A DNA stretch of 64,000 bases. Origin: a virus (taxonomy: Duplodnaviria > Caudoviricetes). The position numbers and the translations under genes were made by a program. Under the pieces are notes generated by a model. That model ran no database searches, was not told the DNA's origin, and saw only the letters and a program-made list of their open reading frames with translations. Below, piece by piece: positions 1,725 to 28,912 of the stretch (positions are counted from its first letter, which is position 1; each line of letters opens with the position of its first letter). Where the stretch lies: IMG/VR virus record IMGVR_UViG_3300031993_000017; one strand, given 5' to 3'.

Positions 1725-2734
1725 CTGTAAGCATCAAACACCTGAATGCAGATTTCTTTCAATTCATCTTCACGATATGGATCGCTTTCCATATACTCAT
1801 CAATGTCAGTCCAACATTCTACTAAATGTTTAGACCCATGATTATCGGTTATGTATGCGTAAGTAATCAAACTGCCTTCATGCTCAACATATTCACAAGT
1901 CCAGGTATAATCAACTAAAGTGTCATCTCCGACAGATTGTAAGTCAATGTTCCACTGTTCTAATGCGGATTCAACATCCTCCATGAATTCTTTGAAATCA
2001 TTGTCTGTGTAAATATCAGTAGATGTCTTTATGGTCTTATGATCCTCAATACACTGCAATCTTATTTCTTCAAGAGTTTCAGCTATCTTCGTTTTTACTT
2101 CTTCAATACTATGACAATGAAATGATTGACCGAGTACATTGCTGTCCTGAACAACTGTAAGTAAGTAATTTTTCTGATCTGATTGATAGGGCTGTTTCAC
2201 ATCGAAATTTACTATGAAATCTACCGGAACAATATCGAAAGATTCGTCCTTTCCATATTTTTTCTTAAGTGCTTTTACTATTTTCTGTCTAGTTTCAGGA
2301 TCTACGTACCTGTTCTGCTCAAGATGGTTTGATATCCTAGGATACATTGTTAATCTACATACAGAGCTGCCTGCCTCGCTGTTCTCTAACACATCAGCAG
2401 TGACATAGAAACTATTACTTTCTGGTTCGATCTTCAAATATTGATCTAACCTCGCACGATATGTTTGATCATATGGATCAGTTGAAGCATCCTTCGGAAG
2501 TATATTAAACCAACGCGCTCGATCACTTTTTGATTTAAAACTTGGATTTGCACCTAACATCTTGTATTTAGATCTATCATCTAAGATTGATCGAAAGTAT
2601 TCTCTTATTTCTGAAAATTCAGAATAGGGAATACGCAACTTACGCTTTGATGCAGTGATTGGAGTAGAATCTTTGAATACAATTGTGTAATATATGTCGA
2701 TGTTAATATATAAATTCAATTGTAATGGTTCCAT
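1709..2734 (-). CDS. hypothetical protein, paralog of 14819-15910 (SxSFYV...RIS[ND]H domain)
   Basis: Co-linear similarity to 14819-15910 over both domains. Confidence 0.75.
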   Translation of the reverse strand: MEPLQLNLYINIDIYYTIVFKDSTPITASKRKLRIPYSEFSEIREYFRSILDDRSKYKMLGANPSFKSKSDRARWFNILPKDASTDPYDQTYRARLDQYLKIEPESNSFYVTADVLENSEAGSSVCRLTMYPRISNHLEQNRYVDPETRQKIVKALKKKYGKDESFDIVPVDFIVNFDVKQPYQSDQKNYLLTVVQDSNVLGQSFHCHSIEEVKTKIAETLEEIRLQCIEDHKTIKTSTDIYTDNDFKEFMEDVESALEQWNIDLQSVGDDTLVDYTWTCEYVEHEGSLITYAYITDNHGSKHLVECWTDIDEYMESDPYREDELKEICIQVFDAYSWMDL

Positions 2735-4246: not shown

Positions 4247-6886
4247 TTATCCTTTCTTCGCCATATAAGTCAAAGCCGTATCTCCCGTATTGCACCAAAG
4301 CGTGTTATTGCCGAGCAAAAGCGGAATATCTGTCTGGGTAATGTTGTATTCTATGGGAGTGGCAAGCGTAAACACTACCGAAACGGGCGTTCCGTTTGCA
4401 TACTGTTGCGCAAGATATGTTTTCATATCCGTTTCGTTCGCTATGCTATCATCACGCCAAAATACTAGATTTTCGTATGCACAAATATTATTGTTTGCGT
4501 TATTCGCATACACGGGAGCGGTTGACGGCTTGTAATGGGAGCAAGCAATAGGCACATTCGTTCCGCTCTTTGCGTCTGTAAGCACGATTGCGGAAAATCT
4601 GCCGTTGCCAAGATACTCTGAGTAATAAATCGTTTCTTCGCCCGTAAACTGATAAATCGGATTTACTACTTTCACCTTCCCCCTCACAAAATCCACCTCC
4701 CCGCCGAAGATCGTTCCCGCTTCGGTCTGCCATGTGACGGGATAGACGGACGGAGTGATATAGGGAGTGTAATCTGTGGCTGTTGAGCCGACTTCTATTT
4801 GTGTTTTAGATATTGTCTGCGGTCGCCCTGTGTTGTTAAAAAAGCGCAAGCCTAATTTTTTTCCTAGGATTGAATCGTTGATGTTGATTGTTGAACTTGT
4901 ATGATCTTCCAACGACCCAGACCAATCGTCACACCAAACAAACCGACAAAACGTGCCTGTAATAGCTTCGCTTATAGTCAATCGGGTATTTCTCCAACTT
5001 TCTGGCACACGATCCGTCAATTCCCAACAGACATAATACGAACCGACATTATTTACATCTATCGTACAAGAATTATTCTCACCATAGATCAAATGGGGAT
5101 TTCCGTTTTTTCGCGCTTCGTTATCAGCCGAAATTTTAATCAGATTCTTCCCACACCCGAACAAATTTGCCCCCGTCCAACCACTTATAGGACGGATATT
5201 CTGAGGTGATGGATCGCCAGAGCCTTCCTGAATAGCTGTGATTTTACACTGTAAGTCAATGGCGGGCTTTGCAAGGGCATCGGTAACTGAAATGATCGGG
5301 GTAAAATCGACATTGAAAACATTTCCATTTCCATTGATATTGAATAAACTACGTTGAAATACTCCGTCACCATAGCCATTTCTTGAATTCCCACCAACAG
5401 AAAGATTTTTTATGTCTCCATAGTCCTGTGTCATATTATCACAATAATAGGTAGAACTTGAACTACCACTGGAAGGAACATTGTATGGTAGCATTGTGCT
5501 GTTAGTAAGCAGAAAACTCTTTATATAGTTTCCGCTTGTTCCAGTAGGTGTAGATTGTACTTCTATATATCCTGTTCCGTCTGTATTGTAATAATCTGTG
5601 GTAGAACCATCTGTCTGACCGAGACACATCTTTATATAAGAATTATCATTTTTGAAAATGTATCCTAAGATTCTTCTTTCGGTGAACCCCCAGAAATTTT
5701 CAATCCCGAATACTTTTACAGCATTTGTATAAACACTAGCATCACCGCTATTTGTACCATAGAACAGGCCCTTATCATTTTGTACACCTGTTCTGAATCC
5801 ATCATTGATTGCGGAAGTACCACCAGTAGTTAAACCTATTCCGAATTTAGACTGAGAATTCAAACTCTTGGAAATCAGAACCAACAGAATATCAATGATT
5901 GTGATTTCTGATAATGTTGGCATATGATAAGTAGATCCATTTGCTTCATAAGCACTAATTTCATCACTGAATTCATCTATTTCACAATATTGAGCATTAC
6001 TTACAGAACGAACTAAAGTTGAATTTCCGCTAATGTTGTATGCTGGAAAATACATCTTATCATTCATACCACCAGATAATCTTATGTATGGATATGCTAC
6101 AAAACCACTGTCAGCTTGTGTTTCACATACATATATACTACCGCTTGTAGAATCACCCGGATCAGATACAATCTTATACCAAATCTTAGGAAACTCGATC
6201 ATTACATTACTCCCACTTGGGAGAGTTCCATCGATTGTCACTGTATTTCCGTCTAAGTCTTTGGTATAATCCATAGGATCAAGATAGGTTACTACTTGTC
6301 CATTTCCGTTAAGGATACATGGTTTACATTGTTTGATAAACCATACATCACCCCAGGAACCATAGTTGAATGTATCATTTGCAAAATCCATGTAAACTGG
6401 GGTCATACCGATAGAATCTAACAAGTATGTTACCGCTGAATCTGGGTCTGATTCTGTACTATCAATATGGAATCCGTGTATAATAGGTCTGTTTAAGGCA
6501 TATGTTACACCATCAACAGATATGGTATTCAAAGCAGGATAAGTAGTTTCCTGTGTCGGATTTGCTGTGATTTGTGGAGCATATAATTCTGTTGTAGTTC
6601 CATTTACTGTTACATCAGCAATATGATCACCTGTTGTTTGAATCGGTGTTACATCAATGGTAGTATGACCCTGTGCAACATCATTGATTGCACCTACCAA
6701 TGTTTTATCAGTAGTGACTAAGGAATCATATTCAAATGATGTTGCGGTTGCATCGGCAATCTGTCCGACTGAAACACTTTTAGATTCATAAGAAGTTCCA
6801 TTCTTTGTCGATACTTCTAATAAATCATCACGATCGGCAGAATCTTTTTTAGTTAATTGAGATATTTTGTGAAAGAAGAATGGCAT
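4247..6886 (-). CDS. tail fibre/receptor-binding protein, paralog of the DGR target with an added C-terminal module
   Basis: First ~510 aa align with 8419-10044 (EYDSLVTTDKTL, HIDS.ESDP, VM.EFPKI, KSLNSQ, VKVFG.EN.WGF). Confidence 0.75.
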   Translation of the reverse strand: MPFFFHKISQLTKKDSADRDDLLEVSTKNGTSYESKSVSVGQIADATATSFEYDSLVTTDKTLVGAINDVAQGHTTIDVTPIQTTGDHIADVTVNGTTTELYAPQITANPTQETTYPALNTISVDGVTYALNRPIIHGFHIDSTESDPDSAVTYLLDSIGMTPVYMDFANDTFNYGSWGDVWFIKQCKPCILNGNGQVVTYLDPMDYTKDLDGNTVTIDGTLPSGSNVMIEFPKIWYKIVSDPGDSTSGSIYVCETQADSGFVAYPYIRLSGGMNDKMYFPAYNISGNSTLVRSVSNAQYCEIDEFSDEISAYEANGSTYHMPTLSEITIIDILLVLISKSLNSQSKFGIGLTTGGTSAINDGFRTGVQNDKGLFYGTNSGDASVYTNAVKVFGIENFWGFTERRILGYIFKNDNSYIKMCLGQTDGSTTDYYNTDGTGYIEVQSTPTGTSGNYIKSFLLTNSTMLPYNVPSSGSSSSTYYCDNMTQDYGDIKNLSVGGNSRNGYGDGVFQRSLFNINGNGNVFNVDFTPIISVTDALAKPAIDLQCKITAIQEGSGDPSPQNIRPISGWTGANLFGCGKNLIKISADNEARKNGNPHLIYGENNSCTIDVNNVGSYYVCWELTDRVPESWRNTRLTISEAITGTFCRFVWCDDWSGSLEDHTSSTININDSILGKKLGLRFFNNTGRPQTISKTQIEVGSTATDYTPYITPSVYPVTWQTEAGTIFGGEVDFVRGKVKVVNPIYQFTGEETIYYSEYLGNGRFSAIVLTDAKSGTNVPIACSHYKPSTAPVYANNANNNICAYENLVFWRDDSIANETDMKTYLAQQYANGTPVSVVFTLATPIEYNITQTDIPLLLGNNTLWCNTGDTALTYMAKKG

Positions 6887-7950
6887 GATTTTAACCCCTT
6901 TCTTTTATCATATTCCGAAACAATCATTCTTAATTGCTTCATACTAATCCTGGAATAGATGTATTTTACACAGGAATTGTGAATATCTAACATCTTAATC
7001 CACCCGATATAAGTAAGCATTTGCCTACTTTCATAAAAGGTTGGTTCTTGCTTCTTTGACAGTCGTTTTGCCTTTGTAATCATCTTATGAAAAATGGATT
7101 TCCGCATGGTGATTCTATCTCTGTAAAATTTACAGCCTAAGAAATCTAAGAATCTACCTTTATGGGTTCCATGTGTGATATAATCAAATCGAAATAACTG
7201 ACATTTGTTATTTAATGAAAGTCCTATATGTTCTAAATAATTACTAATAGAAATCCATGTTTTATGCAATTTTCTTTTATTTGCACCGAATATTACAAGA
7301 TCATCAACATATCGAATGTAGTGAGGTGCGTACATTCCCTGTTTTATCTTATGATCCAATTCATTCAGATAGAAAATCGAAAACCATTGGGAAGTATAAA
7401 ATCCCAATGGAATACCAGTTTCGGAATTTATAATTTTATCACATAACCCCAAAAATTTATTATCACTTATTTTCTGTGATAATTTCTGTTTCAGAATCGT
7501 ATGGTCAACACTTTGAAAATAATGGTGAATATCTAATTTCAAACAATACTTTACATTCTTTTTATCGGTCTGAATCCATTTTTGAATGACTTCCTTTGCC
7601 GATTTTATTCCACGATTCGGTACAGAACCATAGGTATATTCATACAAACTTTTCATCACAATCGGTTTGAATACATTTACGATCATGTGATGAATAATCT
7701 GTTCATCCATTTTTGGTACGATTATTTCTCGTTCCTTTTGTCTGATCCCGTCTTTAATTTTAACAGGGGTATGTTTTGGTGGGATATAATTTTCAGCAAG
7801 TGTTCTGTAATACTCACAGAATTGTTCTGGATGTTCTGACATAAAAAGAACCTTTGGTCGATCCTTCCGACCTCTTGCATAGTCCTTAATGGCTATACAA
7901 ATATTTTGATCGGAAATAAGATTTTCCCAAAGATTCTTATATGTTTTCAT
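6853..7950 (-). CDS. DGR reverse transcriptase
   Basis: KLDIHHYFQS, GIPLGFYTSQW (DGR-type G...SQ), RYVDD; adjacent TR/VR pair; probable start ATG 7950 (MKTYKNL) after AAGAGG. Confidence 0.95.
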   Translation of the reverse strand: MKTYKNLWENLISDQNICIAIKDYARGRKDRPKVLFMSEHPEQFCEYYRTLAENYIPPKHTPVKIKDGIRQKEREIIVPKMDEQIIHHMIVNVFKPIVMKSLYEYTYGSVPNRGIKSAKEVIQKWIQTDKKNVKYCLKLDIHHYFQSVDHTILKQKLSQKISDNKFLGLCDKIINSETGIPLGFYTSQWFSIFYLNELDHKIKQGMYAPHYIRYVDDLVIFGANKRKLHKTWISISNYLEHIGLSLNNKCQLFRFDYITHGTHKGRFLDFLGCKFYRDRITMRKSIFHKMITKAKRLSKKQEPTFYESRQMLTYIGWIKMLDIHNSCVKYIYSRISMKQLRMIVSEYDKRKGLKSCHSSFTKYLN

Positions 7951-8074
7951 TTGTAACCTCTTATTCACACAAATCCTATGCGATTTTCAATTTCTCTACT
8001 AACCGCACCTTCTATCGGAAAATTTTTACACTGTGGTAAGGAAGATGACCTGCATTGAACTCTCTACAAACTTA

Positions 8075-8418: not shown

Positions 8419-10044
8419 TTAGGTACAAGAGGGGGAGGAGCCGAACCCCCAGCCCCGACTCGAAGCCGAAACGTTCAGATGGACAAAGAACGAACCGCAA
8501 TCCGCACCGTAGTACGAAATACCGCCATGAAAGGCGAAAGTATTTATACCAGTGTAGCAATAATCACAATAACATTTTGTGCTACTTGCAGGACTTCCTG
8601 TTGCACTTGCAATCATTGTGTCGGAGATAAAAGTCTCTTTTGAGATATATTCACTTGCTGGAGAAGAAATACCTGTGTTGATATATCCAGTTCCATTGTC
8701 TGAGAATCCATCAGCGGTAGAGCCATCATCTTGTCCGAAACAATTTTTGATATAATGTGTTCCACTTTTCAGTATATGACCTTCGTATCTCCGAAATGCA
8801 AATCCCCACCAGTTCTCCATTCCGAAAACTTTCACGCAATTTGTAAAATTTGTACTTGTAACTGATCCGCTATTTGTACCATAAAACAGCCCTTTTTGAT
8901 TCTGTTCGCCTGTTCGGAAAGCATCATTGATCGCTTCTGAACCACCAGATGTTAATCCTTGTCCATAAACTGCCTGTGAATTTAAGGATTTCCCAAACAA
9001 TACCAAAAGTAAATTGATAAGTGTGACTTCCGAAAGAGTAGTCATGTGGTAATTTGATCCGTTGTTTACACACATTGTACGGGATTCACTTGCCGTAATC
9101 TTATTCATAGCTCTACTGCCACTAACAGATCGCATTACAGCACTTGCAGAATAAGTATCACCGACTACCGAGCCATTGTATGCCGCCATATAAAAATGTT
9201 CTTTATGTTCTTTTGATGGGCCTATATAAGCATAATCCTTATAAGAAGAATCAATCTTCTTATTAGAGAAATAAATGCTTGCGGAAGTCGGATCACCTTC
9301 ATCTGGAACCATTTTCATATAAATCTTAGGGAATTCTACCATTACATTTCCCATGTGATATGGAGAAGTAGCGTCAGCGTCCATTTCTGCCTGTGTGATC
9401 GGGACTGTGTTTCCGTCTATATCCTTTGTATAATCATTCGGATTCAGATAACATACAACCTCACCTTGCGGATTTAAGATACAAGGCTTAATTCCATTGA
9501 TAATAAAATTATCACCCCAGGAACCGTAAGAGAATTCTTTTGTCGTAAAATTCATCTTTGCTGGTGTCATTCCGACAGCATCTTCCAGATAAGCAACACA
9601 TGCCGAAGGATCGGATTCAGAAGAATCAATATGAATTCCGTATATCACAGGTTTCTCTTCATTCCGAACACTGTATATCTGACCGCCGATTTCAATGGTA
9701 GTAAGATTCGTCACAGGTGCGGTATCATCATTCGGAATTACATTCTGAGCATAAACAGATGTGGTAGTTGAATTATTCACCTTAATCTTAGCGATTTCTT
9801 TTCCGCTTGTACGAACCTGTGTAACAGTCACTTGTATATGTGATTGTGCAGATTCATTAACAGCACCGATTAAAGTCTTATCTGTTGTAACAAGTGAATC
9901 ATATTCTGAATTTACCGTCAGATCGGCAATATCATCAACAGGAACAGCCTTAGACTTATCACTTGAAGTAGTTTCAAGAATATCATCTTCTGTTACTTCA
10001 TCGGTATTATTTAACTCAGAAATTTTGTAAAACTTTTTTATCAT
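8419..10044 (-). CDS. DGR target protein, tail fibre/adhesin with C-terminal CLec-like variable domain
   Basis: Ends in VR (FHGGISYYGADCGSFFVHLNVSASSRGWGFGSSP); GMENWWG motif. Confidence 0.9.
   Translation of the reverse strand: MIKKFYKISELNNTDEVTEDDILETTSSDKSKAVPVDDIADLTVNSEYDSLVTTDKTLIGAVNESAQSHIQVTVTQVRTSGKEIAKIKVNNSTTTSVYAQNVIPNDDTAPVTNLTTIEIGGQIYSVRNEEKPVIYGIHIDSSESDPSACVAYLEDAVGMTPAKMNFTTKEFSYGSWGDNFIINGIKPCILNPQGEVVCYLNPNDYTKDIDGNTVPITQAEMDADATSPYHMGNVMVEFPKIYMKMVPDEGDPTSASIYFSNKKIDSSYKDYAYIGPSKEHKEHFYMAAYNGSVVGDTYSASAVMRSVSGSRAMNKITASESRTMCVNNGSNYHMTTLSEVTLINLLLVLFGKSLNSQAVYGQGLTSGGSEAINDAFRTGEQNQKGLFYGTNSGSVTSTNFTNCVKVFGMENWWGFAFRRYEGHILKSGTHYIKNCFGQDDGSTADGFSDNGTGYINTGISSPASEYISKETFISDTMIASATGSPASSTKCYCDYCYTGINTFAFHGGISYYGADCGSFFVHLNVSASSRGWGFGSSPSCT
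8425..8541 (-). repeat. DGR variable repeat (VR) at the 3' end of the target gene
   Basis: 19 mismatches to TR over 117 nt, 18 at TR adenines (minus strand). Confidence 0.95.
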
Positions 10045-10128: not shown

Positions 10129-11103
10129 TTAAATTTCTTCTGTGTTTATTTGGATGTATTCGCCAATAGCATCTAGCAGCTTCTTGGCAGATGTATATTC
10201 ATCTGTCTCGCCGCGACGACCGTCTTTAGGAAGACCTGTGTATCTGCTAGATCCACCTCCCTCGTCAGTTGTAACTACAACATCGTAATTCAAAGGATTA
10301 TCTGAATCCGGATAAATTGTAAGATGTTCTATCTCTGACCAATCACGGCCATTTCTGTCCCAACTAGCCGCCTCCCTGTCACGTGTTCTCTTACCGAAAT
10401 GTACAGGTATTTGATTTTCAATGAAGTACATCAAAAGGGGTCTTGGAAGCCAGCAATGTTTGTCCTCAAATGTTAATAATCCATTGGAAGACGGTATGTT
10501 GTTTTCAATTTCATGTGCAGTTCTTGTATCAACATACTTCTCATCATTTTTTACGCGTCTATCTATGGCAGAGAGTAGGTCATCGTAACCTTTGAACCGT
10601 AAGGTGTCAAATATTGCACCTTTAAGACCTCTCCAACCAATGATCGAAGCTGCGTAGTAGTATGTAAATAACTTATTCAAATCTTTGATTGCTTTTACAT
10701 TTACGTTACTACCTTTATCACGGTAGCCGATAAGTTTCTTGATGATAGCATCCGTAGGCTTGTATTGATCAATGTCCATAGCATTAAGTTCTGCGGAGTA
10801 GTCGTCTTCAGCCTGCTGCTTATCACGTTCATATTCAGATTTCAATTCTGACATATCATAGTAGAAATAGATGTCACCATATCGCTTTGTTATGTACTTT
10901 CCACCAATCTTTTTGATTGTAGATATCCATTCATCAACAGAAGTTGCATAACGAGAACTTTCTGGAGATAAAACAAAATTCCACTTGCCTTCTGAAATGG
11001 GTCTCAAGCTTGTACGACTGCCCCATGAAATTCCTAACTTGCTCTTAAGTCGTTCCATCGGATCACTCACGAATCTCTTTGAGCTTTTAATGTATCTCTT
11101 CAT
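10129..11103 (-). CDS. hypothetical protein with MKRYIKSS leader
   Basis: ORF; shared N-terminal motif; AACCTT box upstream. Confidence 0.8.
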   Translation of the reverse strand: MKRYIKSSKRFVSDPMERLKSKLGISWGSRTSLRPISEGKWNFVLSPESSRYATSVDEWISTIKKIGGKYITKRYGDIYFYYDMSELKSEYERDKQQAEDDYSAELNAMDIDQYKPTDAIIKKLIGYRDKGSNVNVKAIKDLNKLFTYYYAASIIGWRGLKGAIFDTLRFKGYDDLLSAIDRRVKNDEKYVDTRTAHEIENNIPSSNGLLTFEDKHCWLPRPLLMYFIENQIPVHFGKRTRDREAASWDRNGRDWSEIEHLTIYPDSDNPLNYDVVVTTDEGGGSSRYTGLPKDGRRGETDEYTSAKKLLDAIGEYIQINTEEI

Positions 11104-11160
11104 TGCCGTTCCATTATCCTTTCATTTTAATGTGTTACTACAATTCTATGTAAGGTTTTG

Positions 11161-11451
11161 TTACTGTAGGTCATTGACAATTTCTATACCATACCAAGAA
11201 GAAAGTTCTTTTGACAAATATGAAATAAATTTCTGTTCATCGAAAGGCGTTGTAATCATGCGGTCCCAACAATCTGCAAAATCAGGATCAGTAGCGCACA
11301 AGAAATCAATAACACTCCTTGCAGTTACAGCCCCATCTTTGAAAAATTCATTACCATCTTTTACAGCATAGCAGACACTTCTTGCAAGATCACGAGTTTC
11401 ATAGATTCTAGGTTCCGTATATTTCTTTGAGCTTTGTATGTATCTTTTCAT
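11161..11451 (-). CDS. hypothetical protein with MKRYIQSS leader
   Basis: ORF; shared N-terminal motif. Confidence 0.75.
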   Translation of the reverse strand: MKRYIQSSKKYTEPRIYETRDLARSVCYAVKDGNEFFKDGAVTARSVIDFLCATDPDFADCWDRMITTPFDEQKFISYLSKELSSWYGIEIVNDLQ

Positions 11452-11538
11452 GTTCTACTTCCTAATTATGAAACGTTATTATTCACATTCTAACTTATGC
11501 AATAAAATTAAAATTTTGAAGTATTTATTGTTCAACGC

Positions 11539-12782
11539 CTAAATATTACATGCGTTTACCACAATTGGATGTAACGCTACACCCTCTATCCCATTGCTGT
11601 AAGCGTTTGGGAATACTTTTTTAAGAATTTGCAAACTACCATTCACATCAGAATTGATTAACACACCGGAATCGCTTTTAAATAAACCACGATGAATCCT
11701 ACGAGATTTATTGTAATTCTCTTTAATTGGTAACTCATTATCTAAGAAACTTGTCCCACTTGTGTAACTTTCTTCTGTGAGCACTACAGATATACCATAT
11801 TCTTCAGCTTTGTATTTGATCATCTCCATCAATCTGTTATATGGTATCTGTATAAAAGATTGGTTAACTCTTTTGCTCATTTCTGATTTCTGTTTCCAAC
11901 ACTTATTGTTGCCTATAACTATTACAGAAACATCATCACTATGTGCCTTATCAACTATGTATCTACTTGCCTGATGTAAGTAGTTATCAATAATCTGATT
12001 TCTTTTCTCTGTTATACTTAGTATTCTTTTTGTTGAATACTGCTTATTCATCCTCATAGCAATTGACTTGTAGTGAGCTAATAATTTATTATAATATTTG
12101 TTCTCAGACTTCAGACCCTTACCGTTTATTATAAATGGTTGTTCACCAAAATTATTTGTTACGGTTGCTAAGTTATCTAAGCCTATGTCAATACTATAAT
12201 ATCTGTTATTATCGCATACTGTTTCTGGAATTTCTATATTATAAACCACCTCCAATTCAATATGATTTGCTTTAGGTATGAACCTTACTTGCTGAAATGA
12301 CACATAATTTTCATTGCTTATAAATAATGGTTTGATTGAAAAACCATTAAATACTTTGGGAAAATGTAAGATACCATTTTTCAAGTTTACTTCTTGGTTT
12401 GTAAGAGTTAAAACACATCTGTCGCTCTTATCTTTATACTTTGGCAATTTAGGTCTTCCTAAATACTTGTCTTTATTATTTTCCAATCCTTAATAGATTT
12501 GAAGAACGACTTCCAATTTTTATCGAGTAATCTTAATAACTGCTGTGCTGATTGTGCAGTTGGCATATTCTTATAGTCTGGATATTTCATATCAGCTTTT
12601 AATGTTTTGTCCAAGTCTTCATATCTTAACCAGTTGCCATTGCTTACAAACTCTTGTCTGATTAAATAGTTGGCATGGTTATACAAATTTTTTGCGTTAA
12701 AGCAAAAACTATCTATAAGAAGATAATAAGTATTCGATTGTTTAATTTTGTGTTTTTCTACTCTTTGAATTACCATATCCAT
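11539..12782 (-). pseudogene. tnpB: TnpB (IS200/IS605 family, tnpA-less IS1341-like), split by a -1 frameshift near 12480
   Basis: N-part AKNLYN...AQSAQQLL; C-part SIDIGLDNL (RuvC-I), EESYTS, INSDVNGSLQIL (RuvC-III); possible right end TCAA at 11516-11519. Confidence 0.85.
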
Positions 12783-12817
12783 TATTATCCTTTAATGATA
12801 GTAAATATTATTTAATG

Positions 12818-12937
12818 TTATTCGTTACCATAACTTGGATCACGTTCTAGCACAGATACTGTTTCATCAATTGTAAAATTAGGAAAAGTTGCTATCGTGT
12901 TCCAAGGATAATCTAAGTCTGTTATGTAGAAAGTCAT
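12818..12937 (-). CDS. 39-aa ORF (MTFYITDLDYPW...), possibly truncated by the TnpB element
   Basis: Hand translation, GAGAGG RBS. Confidence 0.4.
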   Translation of the reverse strand: MTFYITDLDYPWNTIATFPNFTIDETVSVLERDPSYGNE

Positions 12938-12971
12938 ATCTGTACCTCTCGTTCTTAAAGTTGAAAACCTA

Positions 12972-13334
12972 TCACTCTACAATATCATGCCATTTGCGAA
13001 TTGCATCTACATGACGAGAATCATCACGAGATGGTCTTACAATTTCACCGTTCTCATCATAAATCGTCCAGAAGTTAGAAGCGTCATATGTGTAACCAAT
13101 TCTATCAAGATATCGCTGAATATCAGATTCTTCTGGAATATCATAATAGGAAAGTTCATCAGATGTTAAAAATCTTGGAAGCACTACAGCAGTGTAGCTG
13201 TTAGGCAGATCCCATATCTTCACGATACTAACATCTCTAGGAACAGTACCAGGACCAAGTCCGTGTTTCAGGATATAAAAATATCCATTTCTTGAATATG
13301 TATCAGAAAAACTTGAACGAATGTATCTTTTCAT
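12972..13334 (-). CDS. MKRYIRSS-leader protein with HGxxPGxxP...LTxDEL..YDI domain
   Basis: Paralog of 13354-14028 and 62952-63251. Confidence 0.8.
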   Translation of the reverse strand: MKRYIRSSFSDTYSRNGYFYILKHGLGPGTVPRDVSIVKIWDLPNSYTAVVLPRFLTSDELSYYDIPEESDIQRYLDRIGYTYDASNFWTIYDENGEIVRPSRDDSRHVDAIRKWHDIVE

Positions 13335-13353
13335 AAATCCTCCATGTGATATC

Positions 13354-14028
13354 TCACTTCATCCTATTTTTGAGAGTTCTCATTATTGCAGCTACTGCTA
13401 CTCCTAAGGAAGAGTATGTATACTCTCTGTCAAAATATGGAGTATATCCAATAACTTCCCAATCATCGTCACCGAATTCATAAACAGGCTCAACAGATAC
13501 TATAGTTCTTCCGTGAAAAACAACTTTGGCAACATGCTTGTTATCTTCTCCCTTCCCCCACTCTAATGATATTCCTGGGAGAGCTTTAGGAAGTTTTTTC
13601 AACGTATCAATATCTTTTTGTTTCCAATCATGATCAATAGCATCTTGCGTCAATTCAAAAGACGGTTGTACTTTCGCACCGTTCTTAAGATCGTTTGCTA
13701 CTTTAGCGGAAGGAGCACGAAATGGTTTTACAACTTTACCATTTTCATCGTAGAATGTCCAAAAGTCATTTCTATCATACTTGTACCCAGTTTGTTCAAG
13801 ATATCGTTGAATATCCGATCCGGATAAAGGTAGATAATCTCCAAGTTCAAGATATCTTAGACGCCTAGTAAGAACTACAGCAGTACGATTTTCTGGTAGA
13901 TTCCAAGCCTTTATAACAGAACCATCATTAAAAAATGTAGGATCGGGTTTACGTTCAAGAATATAGAAATATAAATCTCTTGAATACTGATCAGAATAAT
14001 CATAACTTGATCGAATGTATCTTTTCAT
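13354..14028 (-). CDS. MKRYIRSS-leader protein, tandem paralog of 12972-13334 with an extra C-terminal domain
   Basis: Shared YSR..YFYIL, W.LP...TAVVL.R.L, SDIQRYL, FWT.YDENG. Confidence 0.8.
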   Translation of the reverse strand: MKRYIRSSYDYSDQYSRDLYFYILERKPDPTFFNDGSVIKAWNLPENRTAVVLTRRLRYLELGDYLPLSGSDIQRYLEQTGYKYDRNDFWTFYDENGKVVKPFRAPSAKVANDLKNGAKVQPSFELTQDAIDHDWKQKDIDTLKKLPKALPGISLEWGKGEDNKHVAKVVFHGRTIVSVEPVYEFGDDDWEVIGYTPYFDREYTYSSLGVAVAAIMRTLKNRMK

Positions 14029-14046
14029 GAATAATTACTCCTAGAT

Positions 14047-14832
14047 TCAAAATATGTCGTCTTCGTCTTCGAATCCTTTGTAAGAATCGAACCATTCACG
14101 AGCCTCATCTAATGTGTCACATTCGTAATCATAGTCACCATCTTCGGGACGATACAAATCGCTATCACCGAATACAAACACATACTGGTCATTTGCCTTA
14201 TCGTAGTACATTGTGTACTCAGTTAAGAATCCGTCACTGTCACGAACATACTTGCTGTCAATACATTCGAAGTCATCGCCGCTTGATTCTTCATCGTCCC
14301 AATCTGGGTCGTAAGAAGCGTTGACACGCTTATTACAAGATGCAATGGAACATGATTCAATGGGCTGTATTGTGTATTTTGCTCGGTAGTAATCGCTATC
14401 AGTAGTATAATCTGAATCAGACGTTGTAACTTTGAAGGTAGTTGACAGATCCATCTCATCTAACACTTCTTGAATAAGCTGTTTAGCATAAGAATGATCA
14501 TTCTTCCAATCACCTACTACAGTTAATGTAATCTTACCACCTTCCGAAGATACATTGTCTTCTAAACCGTTCTCAACGAATTTATCTTTTATCGCCTCGA
14601 TTAGACCATCTCGATCAAATGACTCGCTACTCTTTATGTAGTCATCGTCTTTATCTTCTAATGTTTTGATATACTCAATAGCTTCATTAGGACTAGAAAA
14701 TTCAGGCGACACTCTTTTGCCTCCGGTCATTACTACCCACCCTGAATGAGTGTCTACTACGCTGTATTTTCCATCTTTGAAACTGTCGCTTGCTAAAATC
14801 CTCTTTGTTATCTTCATTTCATCTACCTCCAA
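14047..14832 (-). CDS. three-module hypothetical protein (putative polyprotein)
   Basis: KRILAS / YIKSS / KRVNAS motifs precede three distinct segments. Confidence 0.75.
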   Translation of the reverse strand: MEVDEMKITKRILASDSFKDGKYSVVDTHSGWVVMTGGKRVSPEFSSPNEAIEYIKTLEDKDDDYIKSSESFDRDGLIEAIKDKFVENGLEDNVSSEGGKITLTVVGDWKNDHSYAKQLIQEVLDEMDLSTTFKVTTSDSDYTTDSDYYRAKYTIQPIESCSIASCNKRVNASYDPDWDDEESSGDDFECIDSKYVRDSDGFLTEYTMYYDKANDQYVFVFGDSDLYRPEDGDYDYECDTLDEAREWFDSYKGFEDEDDIF

Positions 14833-15910
14833 ACTTTTTCATTCTTCGTGCAAATGACTCATATTGCTCAAAAAGTGAAACACAAAAATCAGTAACAATT
14901 TCATTGTGATACAATTCATCATCGAAATAATCATCGATGTAAATATCGCAACTTACTATTGTCGTGTTACCACGGTTATCAGATACGCTTACTTCTACTA
15001 TATAATTTTCATCATCAACAGTTGCATAATCGCATACCCAATGATAATTCTGGAATATTGGAATAAAATCTTTCCTGAGTATGCCGCTGTCGAGGTCGTT
15101 TATGTTATTTTCTAAGTCTTTCAGTATGAGTCTACTGACGTGATCTATGTTACTGCAGGAGTAACTAGCATATACTGCAGATTTAATCGGTTGAGTTTTT
15201 GTGATTGTTTCCCATACTGCATCAAAATACTCCCGCAACCGATGCTTTATATCGTCAAAATCAGAACTACCAAAAGGTTTTGAATATTCTTTTAGATCTA
15301 ATAAATCTACACAATCCAGTTGATAATCTTCTGATGACAGTTCTTTGTTACTATGTTCACCAGTCTCTTTAACTTCTTGTAATGATACCTTTCGAAGAAG
15401 CGTCATTACCGGAACTAGCTCAACCTTAGAATACTTTTCACCAAATTCTGTTACAATACCTTCTTTAGTTAAGTCCCAATTTTTTAAGAAGGAACTATCA
15501 ATATGATCAGAAATTCTTACATAGACTGCAATTGGAATTGACCTTTGTTTACCATTGAGAACATCTACAATTACATAAAAACTCTTGCTTACTGGTGACG
15601 ATTTTAAATATTCTTGGAGTTTCTCCATATCATCGTCATTATCTGTATAAAATATATCTCTTCCTTCTAAAAGATCATATAGGAATTTACTGTCATCACC
15701 GCTTACATCGCTTGGATGCATTGCATATATGCGGTATTTTTTATTGTCATTCAGAATATCTAATACACACTTTCTGAATTCAGAAAATATATCCATAGGA
15801 AATTTTCTGCTTCTGCGTACACTTGCAGAAACTGGCTCTTCAGTCGATTTCACAGAATGTGTAATTTCAAATTCTATTTCAACTGTTAATAATTTACTCA
15901 TTAAAATCAC
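14819..15910 (-). CDS. hypothetical protein, paralog of 1709-2734
   Basis: SKSFYV..DVL...VRISDH; C-terminal W.C.Y...DN.G domain. Confidence 0.75.
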   Translation of the reverse strand: MILMSKLLTVEIEFEITHSVKSTEEPVSASVRRSRKFPMDIFSEFRKCVLDILNDNKKYRIYAMHPSDVSGDDSKFLYDLLEGRDIFYTDNDDDMEKLQEYLKSSPVSKSFYVIVDVLNGKQRSIPIAVYVRISDHIDSSFLKNWDLTKEGIVTEFGEKYSKVELVPVMTLLRKVSLQEVKETGEHSNKELSSEDYQLDCVDLLDLKEYSKPFGSSDFDDIKHRLREYFDAVWETITKTQPIKSAVYASYSCSNIDHVSRLILKDLENNINDLDSGILRKDFIPIFQNYHWVCDYATVDDENYIVEVSVSDNRGNTTIVSCDIYIDDYFDDELYHNEIVTDFCVSLFEQYESFARRMKKFGGR

Positions 15911-15970
15911 CTCATCCTGTTACGGTAGTTAAATTGACGCTCAACCAAGATCTAAACATTTCTAATACCA

Positions 15971-16465
15971 TTAAAGGTTCTTCAAAATAGATAGAATGTA
16001 GTTGTTAACAGATTCATCTTGATTTAGTCTTTTTGTAAATGATTTATAGTTTTCGGAATCACCTGCATAGTAAATTACATAAGCGCATTTCGGGTAAATG
16101 TTATCAAATTCTGTGAAACCATGACCATGCAGATCAGTTTCGATTTGCAGTTGAAACCACTTCACAATTCCAAAATCAATACCACGGAAAACATCATATT
16201 TTGCATAGGTATTCAGATTTTCAAGATCATCGGATGCTATCTTTGAGTAGATGACAGCGTAGTTATCCATGATTGCATTTACTATATCCCGGCAGAAACG
16301 ATCTAGTAGTTTTTCAGCGTCATAAGGTTCAATTCCGTAAACAGGTTTATTTTCAAAAGAATCAAACTCAACCATTACAGAAATTGTTGGAATGACACGA
16401 TCAGGATCTGTAAGATCCATTGGTGTTATGTATTTGCGAAGGTAATCATATTCCATAAAGATCAA
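15971..16465 (-). CDS. hypothetical protein
   Basis: ORF with GGAGG RBS. Confidence 0.7.
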   Translation of the reverse strand: MIFMEYDYLRKYITPMDLTDPDRVIPTISVMVEFDSFENKPVYGIEPYDAEKLLDRFCRDIVNAIMDNYAVIYSKIASDDLENLNTYAKYDVFRGIDFGIVKWFQLQIETDLHGHGFTEFDNIYPKCAYVIYYAGDSENYKSFTKRLNQDESVNNYILSILKNL

Positions 16466-17927: not shown

Positions 17928-20192
17928 TCATATTAAAATATCATCTTTCGTCAGTCCTAAAATATCGTAAAACAGACCCGGATCTCTGTTGAAGTCCAAC
18001 TTATTATCTACAATGAAGTTTGAAATGCCTTCTTTCTTATACAGAATATCATGAACTCTTTCGTCTACTGTGTCTTTGGTCATTAAAGTGATGATGGTTG
18101 TAGATTGTTTGGTTCCGATTCTGTGGCATCTATCTTCGGCTTGAATCTTATCTGCAGGTGTCCAAGGCTCATCATAAAAGATTACAGTAGAGGCTGCTGT
18201 AAAAGTATTTGAAGTTCCTGCAGCTCCAACAGTTCCTAGAAGTACTTTGTATTCCGGATTGGTTTGAAATACCCGCTTATGCTTCTCTCGTAGCTCAGAA
18301 CTCATTGATCCTATAAAACAACAGGTTTTATATTTAGGCGATATGAAAGTATAGAGCATTCTAAGAGGCTCAATCCAGTTGGAGAATATAACCACCTTCT
18401 CGCCACGATCTACCGCCTCATCTAGTAGCTCTAGTAATCTATGTAACTTAGCATTCTTAGATAGGTAACTATCGTCAAATTTAAGTGTTGTATCAACTAT
18501 CTCAGGAGCACCATTTACTTGACGTAATCCGAGGAGTTTAGTCATAGGATTGTAGTTCTTTACATCGCCATCTTCATTTGTCAGAATTTCATTCACAATC
18601 TTTTCATATAACCTAGACTGATATTTTGTATTCTCTACATATTCAACATAACGAATCTTGGGCGGTAAATCTAGCACTTCCGATTTAAGTCGCCGTATCA
18701 TGTTTCCTTGTAACATTGATTTAAGAGATGGAATATTTTTGTAAGCGACGATCTCCTTGTCGCCATATCCTCCATACACGCAGAACTTTTGACACCAGAA
18801 ATAGTAGTTACTAAATGTGTGGCCTCCAACTAGTTTGAGCGGAAGGTACACGTCTGTTGGCTTGTTGACGATTGGAGTTCCTGTTATCGGAATCCACATA
18901 GCAGAATCAGCAGTACCTTCTTTCATATGAATGAGACATTTTCCTTGCTTAGATGAAGGCGATGTGTTTTTATGCACCTCATCAAGTGCAATCATTCCAA
19001 TATCTCCGCTCTTTATTCGCTTAATCAATTCACCTACCATGGGATAGTATTTTCCTTCTTGAAGACGAATTGATTCAATATTTGTGATTATGAAATAGGG
19101 GAGGTCATCACCGTCGCAGGTCTTGAATTTTTCTAAGTCCTCTAACTTCCCTCGACTAGTTCCGTCATACATCAACTTCTTATTTCTTTTTCTTCTAGTT
19201 CCTAGAATATAAGCAGTTTCTTGTCCACGAGTATGAACATGAATATCATTCAGCCAGTTGTATTTAGAGCTGTTTACACAACATATGATCAAACAATGCT
19301 TGAATCCATACTTAGCACGATTGTAAAGGGCAAGGTTGATCGTTTCAAGTGTTTTTCCACAATTGTGAACTACAATTCCGTTTGCAACAAAATTCCGATA
19401 AGGGTCAAACATTTTGATATCATATGTTTCTACTTCACCGAAGTAAGAGATATCTACAATCTTAACTCCAGTAGGTTTTGAGCCTGACACATTAGCAATA
19501 ACTGTATCACCTACCTGGAGATTCTGAAGTTCTACAAAACCTTTAAGCGTCAATATCTCATGATCCGCAGTTGCTTTCAGAGACTTACCAAAATTGAATT
19601 TGACAGTGTATACAGGTTTAACACCACTGTACAGAACATCTCTAATTTCGTGCATACCAAATTCACTACCTCTCAGGCAACGAATTGAATATCCACGGTG
19701 ATGAGATTTTTTGACCCAATCCCGATAAAGTTCTTTCAGCGTTATAGTTCGATACAGTTCACGATAACTCACATGAACTAATGCATCTCCTGAGATACAG
19801 CCCATTTCATCTGCTAAAATAAATCCGTTCATGTTACCTTTATTTTCACGATCAATCGCAAACTTCATAAAATCTAGCTGATGTGAATATGGTCGTCCAC
19901 CTTCTGCAACATAGAAGGGTACGTCTGAGATGTCAATGTCTGGGATAGCATCTACACCAGATACTGCTTGATTTACATTTATTTGTTCATTTGAGTAGAT
20001 GTCAATACTAGTTTCATAATCAGTTCCTTCAAAGGCTTTGATTAAGAAACCTAATTTATCGAGAGGAATTGTCCAGTATTTGAATTCTGGAACCCATCGT
20101 TTTCCGGGAACAGTTTTAACAATGTCGATCACTTTAGGATCATATCTGAATGTTATCTGATATACATCTCCAGCTTGTTTTATTGTTATCAT
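17928..20192 (-). CDS. SNF2/SWI2-family helicase (HARP-like N-terminus) containing an intein
   Basis: LADEMG..GKT, LDEVH, TGTP, KVVIFS, QAEDRCHRIG. Confidence 0.92.
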   Translation of the reverse strand: MITIKQAGDVYQITFRYDPKVIDIVKTVPGKRWVPEFKYWTIPLDKLGFLIKAFEGTDYETSIDIYSNEQINVNQAVSGVDAIPDIDISDVPFYVAEGGRPYSHQLDFMKFAIDRENKGNMNGFILADEMGCISGDALVHVSYRELYRTITLKELYRDWVKKSHHRGYSIRCLRGSEFGMHEIRDVLYSGVKPVYTVKFNFGKSLKATADHEILTLKGFVELQNLQVGDTVIANVSGSKPTGVKIVDISYFGEVETYDIKMFDPYRNFVANGIVVHNCGKTLETINLALYNRAKYGFKHCLIICCVNSSKYNWLNDIHVHTRGQETAYILGTRRKRNKKLMYDGTSRGKLEDLEKFKTCDGDDLPYFIITNIESIRLQEGKYYPMVGELIKRIKSGDIGMIALDEVHKNTSPSSKQGKCLIHMKEGTADSAMWIPITGTPIVNKPTDVYLPLKLVGGHTFSNYYFWCQKFCVYGGYGDKEIVAYKNIPSLKSMLQGNMIRRLKSEVLDLPPKIRYVEYVENTKYQSRLYEKIVNEILTNEDGDVKNYNPMTKLLGLRQVNGAPEIVDTTLKFDDSYLSKNAKLHRLLELLDEAVDRGEKVVIFSNWIEPLRMLYTFISPKYKTCCFIGSMSSELREKHKRVFQTNPEYKVLLGTVGAAGTSNTFTAASTVIFYDEPWTPADKIQAEDRCHRIGTKQSTTIITLMTKDTVDERVHDILYKKEGISNFIVDNKLDFNRDPGLFYDILGLTKDDILI
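19362..19799 (-). mobile_element. 146-aa mini-intein in helicase motif I
   Basis: Starts CISGDA, block B TADHEI, ends NFVANGIVVHN followed by Cys; too short for an endonuclease. Confidence 0.92.
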
Positions 20193-22764: not shown

Positions 22765-23244
22765 TTACTTGGAACGTCTTACTCTTCTTGCAGATGAAGA
22801 AGGACGCTTCTGAGTAGATGCAGAAATCCGAGAGGTTCTAGCTCTACGTACAGTAGAAGCAGAAACCGGCTTTCTTGCAGGGCGTCTTTCAGCTCTTCTA
22901 GCAACTCTAGAAGATGCACTAACAGGACGTCTACCACGAAGGCTTGTTGCAGATACAAGCTCCTCCTCGTCACCCTCAGCCTCAACGGTGTACTCTACAC
23001 CATCTACACTGAAAGTTACAGCATCATCCTCGGAATAAACTTCTACAGGCTTCTCGGAAATCTGATAAATCAGCTCTCCAACTTCCTGTGGACTAAACAG
23101 AAGCTCGGAAGCCTCTTCAGAAACCTGAACAGGATCCTCATCGACTTCATCAGTTACTTCCTCATCAACTTCAACTGCATCGTCAAAATCTCTGATGTCT
23201 TCATCAGCCATGATTCTACGAGATCTTCTACCTTTAACGATCAT
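22765..23244 (-). CDS. putative internal head/core protein: acidic core with Arg/Ser-rich tail
   Basis: Charge-segregated; five motif copies (IMAD, VSAT, VSAS x2, ISAS). Confidence 0.65.
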   Translation of the reverse strand: MIVKGRRSRRIMADEDIRDFDDAVEVDEEVTDEVDEDPVQVSEEASELLFSPQEVGELIYQISEKPVEVYSEDDAVTFSVDGVEYTVEAEGDEEELVSATSLRGRRPVSASSRVARRAERRPARKPVSASTVRRARTSRISASTQKRPSSSARRVRRSK

Positions 23245-25927: not shown

Positions 25928-27397
25928 TCACATGATTCCTACGATTCTACCAGATACAACGGTTGCAGGGTTAACTACCTTCGCAGCATACATCGTCGCA
26001 TAGCCTTGCTGCACGCTGGCATTGGCCAATCCTATTGCATCGGTGTTGGTAAGAGGCATATACTCACCAAACAGAGCAGAGTTTCTACGGATGTCGCTAG
26101 ACTTGCAAGACATAACCCAAATGTTAGGATCGAAGGAAGGATCGCAATATACTTCGAACTGATCGATAGTACCTGCCTTGTACGGACCAACAGTCTCGCC
26201 AGTAGGAGCAGCAACCCAACCCTGTACCATGGACAGGTAAGACTTAACATTGGTACCAACAATAAGTCTATTAGGCTGAGAAAGTCTGGTCTCCTGATAG
26301 ATGGAAGCAGCAGCCTGAGTCAGCTTCAGCTTGAACATGTTCAGGTAATCAGAAGGAACTACTGCACCAGAGAGTACAGGAGATGCATCCCAGTTAAACT
26401 GAGGTCTAACAGATGCAGCTGCAAGCAGCTTCTGGAAGCAAGAGGTGTTGATCTCAGCAGTGAGCTCGGAGAAAGCAGCAGACTTAGCAACATCTGCAAT
26501 GTTAGCGCCCCATTCCTGGTTAGCTGCGAATGCAGAATAGATGCTCCAGTAGCAAGCAAGCTGATGTGCTTCTGCTACAAGGTTGAACTCATCGAGCTGT
26601 AAGTAACCTTTGCCCATCTGAGCGCCGTAATCATAACCATAACCACCGTTGTCAGGTACACGAGGACCTACGTTCTCGTTGTCGTACTGATAAGTAGCTA
26701 CTACAGAATCACCAGCAGCACCAGAAATACCGGTAATGGTGAAAGTACCCATTGCATAATCAATAGTACCCTTCTGAGTAGTTGTACCAGACTGTACAAG
26801 TAAACCGTTACCGTCGTCTACAACAGTTGTAGTAGTTCCGGAAAGGGTGTAAGTGATAGTTACAGAACCCGGAATAACGGGAGTGTAAGCAAGAGCACCA
26901 TTAGCGGTGATTAAAGTACCTTCTGCAACGATTTCGTTCTTGATAACACGACCGGTGAAGTTAGGATCAATACCCTGGCGGTTTACAAAAGGACTAGAAA
27001 GGATGTCGCCGGCCTTGGTCTCACCCTTATTGTTTTCAGCAATGAACTTGAAGTAAGGAACCATCTGAGTTCTGGAATTCATCGCTACGGAACCATAAAC
27101 ATCGAGCACAAGCAGGTTCTGTACGAACAGAGGCAGAAGCTCTAAGAAATCAGGCTTTGCCATCACGTTTGTAGTATTGGTAGCAGCGGTAATGGTGCTC
27201 TGACCTCTCATGTTTCTCTGCAGCTGACGAACGAAAGACTGCTGTTCAGGATTAAGTTTAGACAGTCCGGCACTAAATCCGGAAGATGCTCCGCGTCTTG
27301 CAACGCTAGCAGTAATGTTGCTTCTTGCAGGTCTATTGATGCCAGCAGCGGCACTAATAGGACGAGCGGGACGAACAATTCGCTTATTGATATTCAT
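25928..27397 (-). CDS. major capsid protein (T4 gp23-like) with basic propeptide
   Basis: DVYGSVAM, ELTAEIN, VYCDP, EYMPL, GYATMYA patterns; follows prohead protease. Confidence 0.9.
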   Translation of the reverse strand: MNINKRIVRPARPISAAAGINRPARSNITASVARRGASSGFSAGLSKLNPEQQSFVRQLQRNMRGQSTITAATNTTNVMAKPDFLELLPLFVQNLLVLDVYGSVAMNSRTQMVPYFKFIAENNKGETKAGDILSSPFVNRQGIDPNFTGRVIKNEIVAEGTLITANGALAYTPVIPGSVTITYTLSGTTTTVVDDGNGLLVQSGTTTQKGTIDYAMGTFTITGISGAAGDSVVATYQYDNENVGPRVPDNGGYGYDYGAQMGKGYLQLDEFNLVAEAHQLACYWSIYSAFAANQEWGANIADVAKSAAFSELTAEINTSCFQKLLAAASVRPQFNWDASPVLSGAVVPSDYLNMFKLKLTQAAASIYQETRLSQPNRLIVGTNVKSYLSMVQGWVAAPTGETVGPYKAGTIDQFEVYCDPSFDPNIWVMSCKSSDIRRNSALFGEYMPLTNTDAIGLANASVQQGYATMYAAKVVNPATVVSGRIVGIM

Positions 27398-27418: not shown

Positions 27419-28912
27419 TTATAGTGTAATTAAACTATTACCTCCATCAGGCGATACGCTCATAAGTTTTGAGTTAGGCTTGGAGGTTTCGTGAATACCT
27501 GACCCGCCAATTATCTTCTGAAGTTGGCGGACAGTAGTGGAAGCAGTAATAGAGCCAGGAACCTCGCTCAAATCTACTCCTACAGCGTTTGCATAAATTC
27601 TTGCATACGCGTTTTGGTATTCTTCTAGTAAAGTATAAGCAGCAGTGAGTTCTTCAGATAATTCGTTGACCTGTGCATCAAAGTTTGATGTGGATGCTTC
27701 AATTTCAGAATGCTTTCTGACGGTTTCATCAAGATCTGATTGAAGCTGAGACAACTCAGAATCACGCTTCTGTAATTCAGACTTAGTAGATGCTATTACA
27801 GCGTCCTTTGAAGATAATTCATCGGACTGTGAAGCAATTACATCATCTTTCTCTGCAAGTTCTGCAGAAAGATCTGAAAGATCCTTTTTCGTAGATGATA
27901 AAATGTCTGACAATTCATGAAGTTCTGATTCTCTATCTCGAAGAAGCTTTTTACTTGCTTCTACTTTTCTCTTATATTTAAGGTTTTGTAATTGAACGGA
28001 ACTTACCCGGTCTTCTAGCTCCTGAATTTCGCTACCAAGTACATCATTTTCTCTAGAAAGATTGTCTATTTGAGCTGCCATTATACGCTTGATAGCTTTG
28101 AGCTTTCTCGAATTCTTTAAACTTCTGTTAGCAAGTAATGTTCTAAGTTGTGCATTCTCTTCCTGATAATGCTTTATGTCTTCACAAGAAGCTAAATACA
28201 ATTCAGTCATTCCGTTCAGTCGATCTTTTACTATATCTGAAGAAGGTGCTTTTGCAGACAAGATGCTTTGCTTTTTCTGCTCAAGTGCTTTGTATTCATC
28301 GGACTGTTTTGCGAAACAAGACTGAACTATCTCTATGGACTGAGAAGTATTAAGTGCGTCAATGTTTTGGTTAACTGCTGCGCAAATCCGACTATATTTC
28401 TTTTGAGATTCTATATCAGAAGAAGCAGCAATTTCTGTAAATGTAGGAATAGACTCAGGGAATGCCGGGAACGACACTAAGTCAAATCCACGGAATACAA
28501 ATGTTTCAGGGTCAACAGAATTGTTAACAATGTCACCTGCACCTCTTACAGAAATTCCAAATGTTACACCTGCATCAATGAAAGCTTTAACAATTTTTCC
28601 TACAGGAGTATCAACAAGATTAAATTTTCCTTGAATCTTTCCGTTGGCGTCGATACTTCCTTCAGTCATCACGATACATGCATGTTCAAAATCCATACAA
28701 TTCGGATCGTCGGGATGCCCTAAGAAACCGATGTACCATCCAAGTTCAATAGCTTGACGATATTCGTCAGAATTAAATACATTCTCCCAAACTTCTGCAG
28801 TTATATCAAGACCGTTCTTGTTTGTGATGTTAGCATCTGCGCACTCACCCTCAAACACACCTAATACAGAAGTCTTTACTCCGGAATTACTTTTGATATC
28901 CTTGTCTCTCAT
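27419..28912 (-). CDS. prohead protease (T4 gp21/assemblin-like fold) fused to a coiled-coil scaffold
   Basis: NKNG, GFLGHP, TPVGKIVK, GISVRGAG, FDLVSFPAF; C-terminal ~330 aa coiled coil. Confidence 0.88.
   Translation of the reverse strand: MRDKDIKSNSGVKTSVLGVFEGECADANITNKNGLDITAEVWENVFNSDEYRQAIELGWYIGFLGHPDDPNCMDFEHACIVMTEGSIDANGKIQGKFNLVDTPVGKIVKAFIDAGVTFGISVRGAGDIVNNSVDPETFVFRGFDLVSFPAFPESIPTFTEIAASSDIESQKKYSRICAAVNQNIDALNTSQSIEIVQSCFAKQSDEYKALEQKKQSILSAKAPSSDIVKDRLNGMTELYLASCEDIKHYQEENAQLRTLLANRSLKNSRKLKAIKRIMAAQIDNLSRENDVLGSEIQELEDRVSSVQLQNLKYKRKVEASKKLLRDRESELHELSDILSSTKKDLSDLSAELAEKDDVIASQSDELSSKDAVIASTKSELQKRDSELSQLQSDLDETVRKHSEIEASTSNFDAQVNELSEELTAAYTLLEEYQNAYARIYANAVGVDLSEVPGSITASTTVRQLQKIIGGSGIHETSKPNSKLMSVSPDGGNSLITL

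Follow-up and report, generated by a model that had tools for sequence, protein, structure and literature searches.

Introduction

The closest described systems are the internal head proteins of phage T4 and the proteases that process proteins of this kind. In T4 the prohead protease gp21 cuts after L/I-x-E, and a site of this kind closes the 10-residue capsid targeting sequence (CTS) of the internal proteins (PMC9026906, PMC3012670). The internal proteins IPI, IPII, IPIII and Alt share a conserved N-terminal peptide of ~10 aa that sits on unrelated, fast-evolving small proteins (PMC9026906, PMC3012670). The protease itself has a motif-conforming LIE-9 near its N-terminus, and the small IPI* leaves through the tail with the DNA (PMC9026906). 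The gp21-family proteases characterised so far all cut after Glu (PMC9026906, PMC10052503). Those of the giant phages phiKZ, 201phi2-1 and SPN3US cut head-internal and ejection proteins at several very short motif copies (S/A-x-E, A-x-E), which are redundant within each chain (PMC10052503, PMC9026906). These cuts mostly destroy long N-terminal propeptides and leave a single mature C-terminal product.

In herpesviruses the protease assemblin is fused to the scaffold and cuts itself free. The consensus of its maturation and release sites is (V/L/I)-x-A|S. Assemblin and gp21 are related in fold (PMC9026906).

Here we describe P0001, a three-module protein encoded by a tailed phage (Duplodnaviria; Caudoviricetes) in a 64,000-nucleotide stretch of DNA, IMG/VR record IMGVR_UViG_3300031993_000017, which we refer to as the window. 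A preliminary description had read P0001 as an apparent polyprotein, made of small cargo genes that were fused with their tags retained and released as separate proteins in the head. The locus resembles that of T4 in several ways. Both phages have a Gp23-type capsid protein alongside a gp21-type protease and a scaffold; as in T4, small proteins of the window share an N-terminal peptide, here ending in a candidate site for the head protease; and the loci of these proteins are plastic in both. It also differs from T4. P0001 has no sequence homology to IPI, IPII, IPIII or Alt, the leader ends in [IV]-x-[SA]-[SA] rather than L/I-x-E, one ORF strings together several putative cargo domains with additional candidate sites between them, and the proteins are acidic. 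The phiKZ-like phages share with this locus the presence of several very short motif copies per chain, but their cuts follow Glu and fall largely within propeptides, whereas every inter-site segment of P0001 is a predicted folded domain. Assemblin resembles the present case in having a protease fused to a scaffold and, as far as the motifs can be compared, in placing an aliphatic residue, any residue and then small Ala/Ser around the scissile bond; the protease of the window, however, belongs by sequence to the phage gp21/S77 family.

There is thus precedent both for internal proteins with a CTS and for processing at several sites by gp21-family proteases. To our knowledge, neither chains of folded cargo domains with a site at every junction nor a Ser/Ala-type site has been published.

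The gene and its neighbourhood

P0001 is encoded by a single unbroken minus-strand ORF at 14047..14832, which has a TTG start and a length of 261 aa. The likely start is an ATG at 14817, five codons past the TTG at 14832, giving a protein of 256 aa. This ATG is preceded by GGAGG and lies 4 nt beyond the stop codon of the upstream gene. An orthologue from another sample, P0002 on contig L001, begins at the equivalent ATG. It is 91% identical to P0001, is also encoded by one ORF and retains all three motif cores. The continuous ORF and its reproduction in an independent sample rule out mis-joined separate genes or a frameshift artefact, and internal translation starts are ruled out by junctions that contain no Met. 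The features discussed below are collected in Table 1.

Table 1. Features of the P0001 locus and of the head genes in the window
Feature	Position	Strand	Details
Gene for the 256-aa three-module protein P0001	14047..14817	minus	ATG at 14817 behind GGAGG; stop codon 14047-14049
N-terminal leader, residues 1-10 (MKITKRILAS), candidate capsid-targeting tag and protease site	14788..14817	minus	12.6 bits; KRILAS at residues 5-10
Module 1, residues 11-58, small beta-beta-beta-alpha domain	14644..14787	minus	AF2 domain 13-58
Junction motif DYIKSS, residues 59-64	14626..14643	minus	9.6 bits; pLDDT<50 segment 59-65
Module 2, residues 65-155, alpha/beta domain	14353..14625	minus	AF2 domain 66-155
Linker, residues 156-178, with KRVNAS (residues 163-168, nt 14314-14331)	14284..14352	minus	7.7 bits; pLDDT<50
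Module 3, residues 179-256, widespread acidic mobile domain	14050..14283	minus	16 invariant residues; 41 relatives
Upstream neighbour, translationally coupled	14819..15901	minus	Motif near residue 27 and another at ~238
Downstream neighbours with MKRYI[KQR]SS leaders (13354-14028, 12972-13334, 11161-11451, 10129-11103)	10129..14028	minus	Split TnpB gene interrupts
Gp23-type major capsid protein	25928..27397	minus	PF07068 at 1.5e-17; three motif copies in basic 72-residue N-terminus
Prohead protease (gp21/S77-like) fused to coiled-coil scaffold, candidate processing enzyme	27419..28912	minus	PF03420 28.3 bits (cut-off 27); phrog_207 4e-22

The gene sits downstream of a helicase gene, among unannotated genes and outside the head module. 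This counts against a role as head cargo, as does the strongly acidic composition of P0001, which would be unusual for a DNA-associated internal protein. The neighbourhood differs between the window and contig L001, where the orthologue is followed directly by an MKRYIQSS gene. The TnpB gene and two MKRYIRSS genes that intervene in the window are thus insertions or losses, and the locus is plastic. The TnpB-like gene (11539-12782, minus) is itself present as two overlapping ORFs of 315 and 107 aa, lying between leader-bearing genes. The helicase gene (17928-20192, minus) is of SNF2 type and has an apparent intein-like insert, visible in the translation as a block that starts with Cys and ends with HN-Cys. 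The order of a helicase, a few small genes and then leader-tagged modular proteins is also kept in contigs L003 and L005.

A promoter and terminator scan returned nothing above shuffled sequence, apart from a terminator-like hairpin after gene 10129-11103. Among cultured phage genomes, neither blastn with 13000-16000 nor tblastn with P0001 gave a match, and a pattern scan of viral contigs for P0001 gave 26 pattern matches, none of which was confirmed.

Three motifs and three predicted domains

The three motifs of the preliminary description, and the sizes of the segments that they delimit, are borne out: the segments are 54, 104 and 88 aa long. The internal YIKSS is indeed identical (5/5) to the core of MKRYIKSS, with which gene 10129-11103 begins. 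We scored P0001 with a leader profile of 7 columns. It was derived from 24 N-terminal leaders taken from the window and from related contigs, excluding P0001 itself and P0002. The three top positions are exactly the three motifs (scores in Table 1). In 20,000 shuffles of residues 11-256, the probability that the best internal match reaches 9.57 bits is 0.0175 and that the second best reaches 7.69 bits is 0.00125. With four positions the motif is low in information, a point against the cargo interpretation.

Between P0001 and P0002 the leader is invariant despite three synonymous changes, and the next four residues are all replaced. P0002 keeps the VNAS core in the second linker, with R164 replaced by N. 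Leader codons vary synonymously among genes and among orthologues, so that selection acts on the peptide rather than on the mRNA. The codons of the internal YIKSS are unlike those of every leader copy; if a fusion took place here, it is therefore old.

An AlphaFold2 model of P0001 (29-row alignment, mean pLDDT 74) has three separate folded domains, at residues 13-58, 66-155 and 179-253. The only segments with pLDDT<50 are 1-6, 8-12, 59-65, 156-178 and the final three residues. The preliminary description had proposed that structure prediction should place the motifs in disordered linkers and not inside folded domains, and all three motifs do fall in these segments and hence in predicted flexible regions. 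Both internal motifs lie within the ~12% of internal residues that form the linkers. Low pLDDT at the linkers is suggestive of disorder, although it may partly reflect the alignment, which is shallow for modules 1 and 2. Module 3 is modelled with pLDDT 85-96. Thus one ORF is predicted to encode several independently folding units, that is, three domains with low-confidence linkers between them, of which modules are recombined elsewhere.

Fold searches were uninformative. A search of the PDB gave no match at E <= 0.001, BFVD returned two uncharacterised phage proteins and nothing else (partial, probably matching module 3), and the ESM Atlas only unnamed clusters. P0001 and its leader-bearing neighbours have no significant family in Pfam, PHROGs or NCBIfam. 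The sole row returned for P0001, Peptidase_M16_M, is sub-threshold (14.7 bits against a cut-off of 29.7) and is rejected. In these collections, no domain of P0001 has a known family or an informative fold match.

Modules and their relatives

The three modules have very different distributions. An exhaustive phmmer search with residues 1-168 against 1.84 billion representatives found the orthologue P0002 only, and in that search module 1 has no detectable relative besides P0002. Module 2 has a single relative, the first module of P0004, where it stands directly behind the N-terminal leader. The internal YIKSS of P0001 therefore stands where the terminal tag of this relative stands. Module 3 has 41 relatives (27 + 14) that match it alone, in many architectures; in the 27 it occupies the N-terminus, the middle or the C-terminus of very different chains. 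In P0006, P0021 and P0029 it is the leader-proximal module. Among short proteins, to which one search was limited, P0151 (89 aa) and P0153 (86 aa) consist of module 3 and a short N-terminal leader, and in P0150 and P0155 module 3 follows a ~35-aa segment ending in I-E-S-[SA].

A search for each segment as a stand-alone, leader-bearing gene thus succeeds for module 3, finds module 2 only in a leader-proximal position and finds no relative of module 1. The idea of small genes fused together with their tags has support for modules 2 and 3, and module 1 is an orphan, so that an origin from former genes is supported for at most two of the three modules. For those two, the positions of their relatives support a fusion history.

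The N-terminal leader of P0004 and the residues that follow it resemble residues 164-175 of P0001, around KRVNAS, and P-D-W is common to both a few residues past the site. This resemblance is weak (E = 0.14); leader-mediated shuffling may have left it.

The leader and the head proteins of the window

At least 10 genes of the window, together with genes on contigs L001 and L003-L005, start with M-[KR]-[KR]-Y-[IV]-x-[SA]-[SAN] or an MKITK variant, and their bodies are unrelated. These leaders end in [IV]-x-[SA]-[SAN] and not in the gp21-type L/I-x-E. The leader-bearing proteins of the window include none with a recognisable virion function. The basic-preceded form of the motif, [KR][KR].?[IV].[SA][SA], is present 15 times in the window proteome, where 1.08 copies would be expected. 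The internal ones are concentrated in the capsid propeptide, the protease-scaffold protein and a 159-aa head-module protein. Without the basic residues the signal is far weaker: the minimal [IV].[SA][SA] is expected ~50 times in the window proteome, and internal profile matches of at least 7 bits number 13 against 6.8 expected, about twofold.

The candidate processing enzyme begins with a leader-like peptide, as judged by the profile, and contains several motif copies, one immediately behind the protease domain and one close to the C-terminus. Its Pfam match to S77 is barely above the cut-off, which counts against the cargo interpretation. The 159-aa protein (22765-23244, minus) is basic and has two near-identical R-[RK]-P-V-S-A-S repeats that resemble the capsid propeptide; possibly it serves as a scaffold or core protein and is degraded when the head matures.

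Motifs matching those of the leader, the capsid propeptide and the scaffold are present in both linkers of P0001, where they are candidate sites. Similar internal motifs recur in other proteins. The translationally coupled upstream gene (14819-15901) and its paralogue at 1709-2734 (minus), at 26% identity, have two motifs at aligned positions, P-[VI]-[ST]-A-S near residue 25 and [PT]-I-K-[ST]-[AS] near residue 240. Both are without an N-terminal MKRY leader and are candidates for processed proteins with a longer propeptide. The motif is not universal at junctions: the two-domain leader protein encoded at 13354-14028 has no junction motif at 7 bits or above.

The comparison extends to the relatives of module 3, counted with one representative per protein family. 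Those with Ser/Ala leaders have 10 internal [IV].[SA][SA] motifs against 2.7 expected, while the other module-3 proteins have 3 against 3.8 (Fisher P = 0.0016). Families A and B, whose members have diverged, conserve the motif in indel-rich linkers as the flanks change, and in one of them 'SAT' is found in both leader and junction. In an AlphaFold2 model of P0027 the leader, an I-Y-E-S site and I-E-S-S at 282 all lie in pLDDT<50 segments, and a further site, for which the model is uninformative, lies in a long, poorly modelled region. Many of the internal copies correspond to the C-terminal half of the leader only, in an acidic context of the D-I-E-S-S type.

The motif across the clade and in a cultured relative

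The capsid protein of the window belongs to a large group of uncultivated phages, with more than 850 related clusters on contigs that reach 225 kb; most of the largest measure 120-225 kb. Among the best 120 homologues, all 60 that were listed have at least one [IV]-T-[AS]-x site in the capsid propeptide and an [IV]-x-A-A just before the conserved body. The propeptides of these 60 are otherwise hypervariable and basic.

The closest cultured relative is Streptococcus phage vB_SagM-GXN1 (PQ819873), with 28% capsid identity. Its small-gene leaders end in L-[TN]-E, and L-x-E sites abound in its capsid N-terminus and protease-scaffold. The record has only 40 features, and three unannotated small genes at 11906-14027 start with M-R-L-[VI]-[RK]-L-[TN]-E. 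Module-3 proteins on other contigs have M-x-K-x-[IL]-x-E leaders, and leaders of the Glu type were seen only in phage groups other than that of the window. As read from the sequences, then, phage groups that differ in the end of the leader differ correspondingly in the capsid and scaffold motif, a comparison drawn with one cultured outgroup and N-termini only. Such co-variation would follow if the leader closes with the cut site of the head protease and if, in this clade, that protease favours small residues in place of the Glu demanded by its known relatives.

The capsid evidence is less clear about the site itself. An ungapped count and the BLAST alignment of the capsid propeptide against that of vB_SagM-GXN1 give conflicting scissile registers. 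BLAST aligns the near-invariant capsid site with residues of vB_SagM-GXN1 that would be mature, so this site may be structural rather than a cut site.

A candidate cargo polyprotein

We propose that P0001 may be a polyprotein of cargo domains targeted to the capsid, where a gp21-family protease whose cuts do not follow Glu would separate them. We consider the chances of this reading to be evenly balanced; that all characterised proteases of the family require Glu counts against it. The observed basis is the three-domain architecture, the position of the motifs in predicted flexible linkers, the non-random occurrence of the motif, the mobility of the modules and the co-variation of leader, capsid and scaffold. 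Beyond this lies inference: that P0001 is packaged and cleaved, which bond is cut, what becomes of the pieces and what the domains may do. Gene fusion or module shuffling would have joined three small domains that fold independently, each having kept or acquired an [IV]-x-[SA]-[SA] peptide in front of it. As with the internal proteins of T4, the N-terminal leader would direct the entire chain into the prohead scaffolding core, and the gp21-family protease would then remove the leader and sever the two linkers. Three compact pieces of ~6, 11 and 10 kDa would be left for ejection through the tail with the DNA. Going by the register of T4 L/I-x-E|, the cut may fall between [IV]-x-[SA]|[SA], one residue earlier than the preliminary description had placed it.

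The main rival explanation is an uncut three-domain protein, in which the internal motifs are scars of gene fusion, or of recombination in the short leader-coding sequence, that are tolerated in linkers. Modules 2 and 3 both have relatives directly behind an N-terminal leader, which makes a fusion history likely on any account, and scars too would be limited to phages with the same leader type, in agreement with the enrichment among Ser/Ala-leader proteins. R164 has already drifted to N in P0002, and some multidomain leader proteins lack a junction motif. Against these points, the motif core is kept in the indel-rich linkers of diverged homologues and in the 26%-identical paralogues as the flanks change, and the residues of the internal YIKSS persist although its codons differ from those of all leader copies. 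Furthermore, many internal copies retain only the C-terminal half of the leader, the half which T4 genetics assigns to processing and not to targeting (PMC9026906). We regard such scars as an unlikely explanation, though one to be taken seriously.

It is also conceivable, although we think it quite improbable, that the peptide shared by these N-termini is unconnected with the head. It might instead act in translation initiation or in stability, or mark proteins for some other machine of the phage or host, and its internal copies would then have no proteolytic meaning. The leader-bearing genes are scattered outside the head module, and their products in the window have no recognisable virion function, as this explanation would have it. 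Yet the end-motif recurs in the capsid propeptide and the protease-scaffold and co-varies with both between phage groups, and the synonymous variation of leader codons speaks for selection on the peptide and not on the mRNA. The leader-like start of the protease also has a counterpart in LIE-9 of T4 gp21 (PMC9026906).

Chance matches of a short Ser/Ala-rich motif in linkers rich in small residues are very improbable, since, for all the ~50 minimal matches expected in the proteome and the roughly twofold excess of internal profile matches, two such matches in one protein have a shuffle P of 0.00125, both fall in the small fraction of residues that forms the linkers, one agrees with the leader core at 5/5 positions and the pattern recurs in unrelated families.

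The cargo-polyprotein reading can be taken further, and here we are tentative and would sooner doubt the whole than accept it. A clade of uncultivated phages of 150-225 kb would have switched its gp21-family protease from cutting after Glu to an assemblin-like cutting at Ser/Ala, with leaders and linkers co-evolving. P0001 would then be a true cargo polyprotein that delivers three mini-proteins into the host, and module 3 a widely traded injected effector domain.

If the proposal is true, the 'address label + protease site' logic of T4 is a general and evolvable grammar: a change of protease brings a change of label and cut site, and small cargo domains can be strung together and separated afterwards. 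It would become possible to read from sequence which proteins uncultivated phages inject, likely counter-defence or takeover factors, and module 3 would be a widespread candidate among the injected domains. The clade would also offer a naturally occurring form of the gp21/assemblin protease fold that cuts by another rule. With such tags and joints, a single gene could supply several proteins for loading into capsids.

Other features of the window

A second mobile module, with the core H-G-x-x-P-G, stands behind the leader in genes 12972-13334 and 13354-14028. It is found at either end of the modular proteins of related phages, often together with module 3, e.g. at the N-terminus of the P0008 family and at the C-terminus of P0023, P0026 and P0027.

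A reverse transcriptase gene (PF00078, phrog_1423; 6853-7968, minus) adjoins an 879-aa ORF (4247-6886, minus) and a tail protein gene (8419-10044), and this arrangement may be a diversity-generating retroelement. Two tandem paralogues at 34057-36007 (minus) combine pentapeptide repeats with DUF5758 (PF19062).
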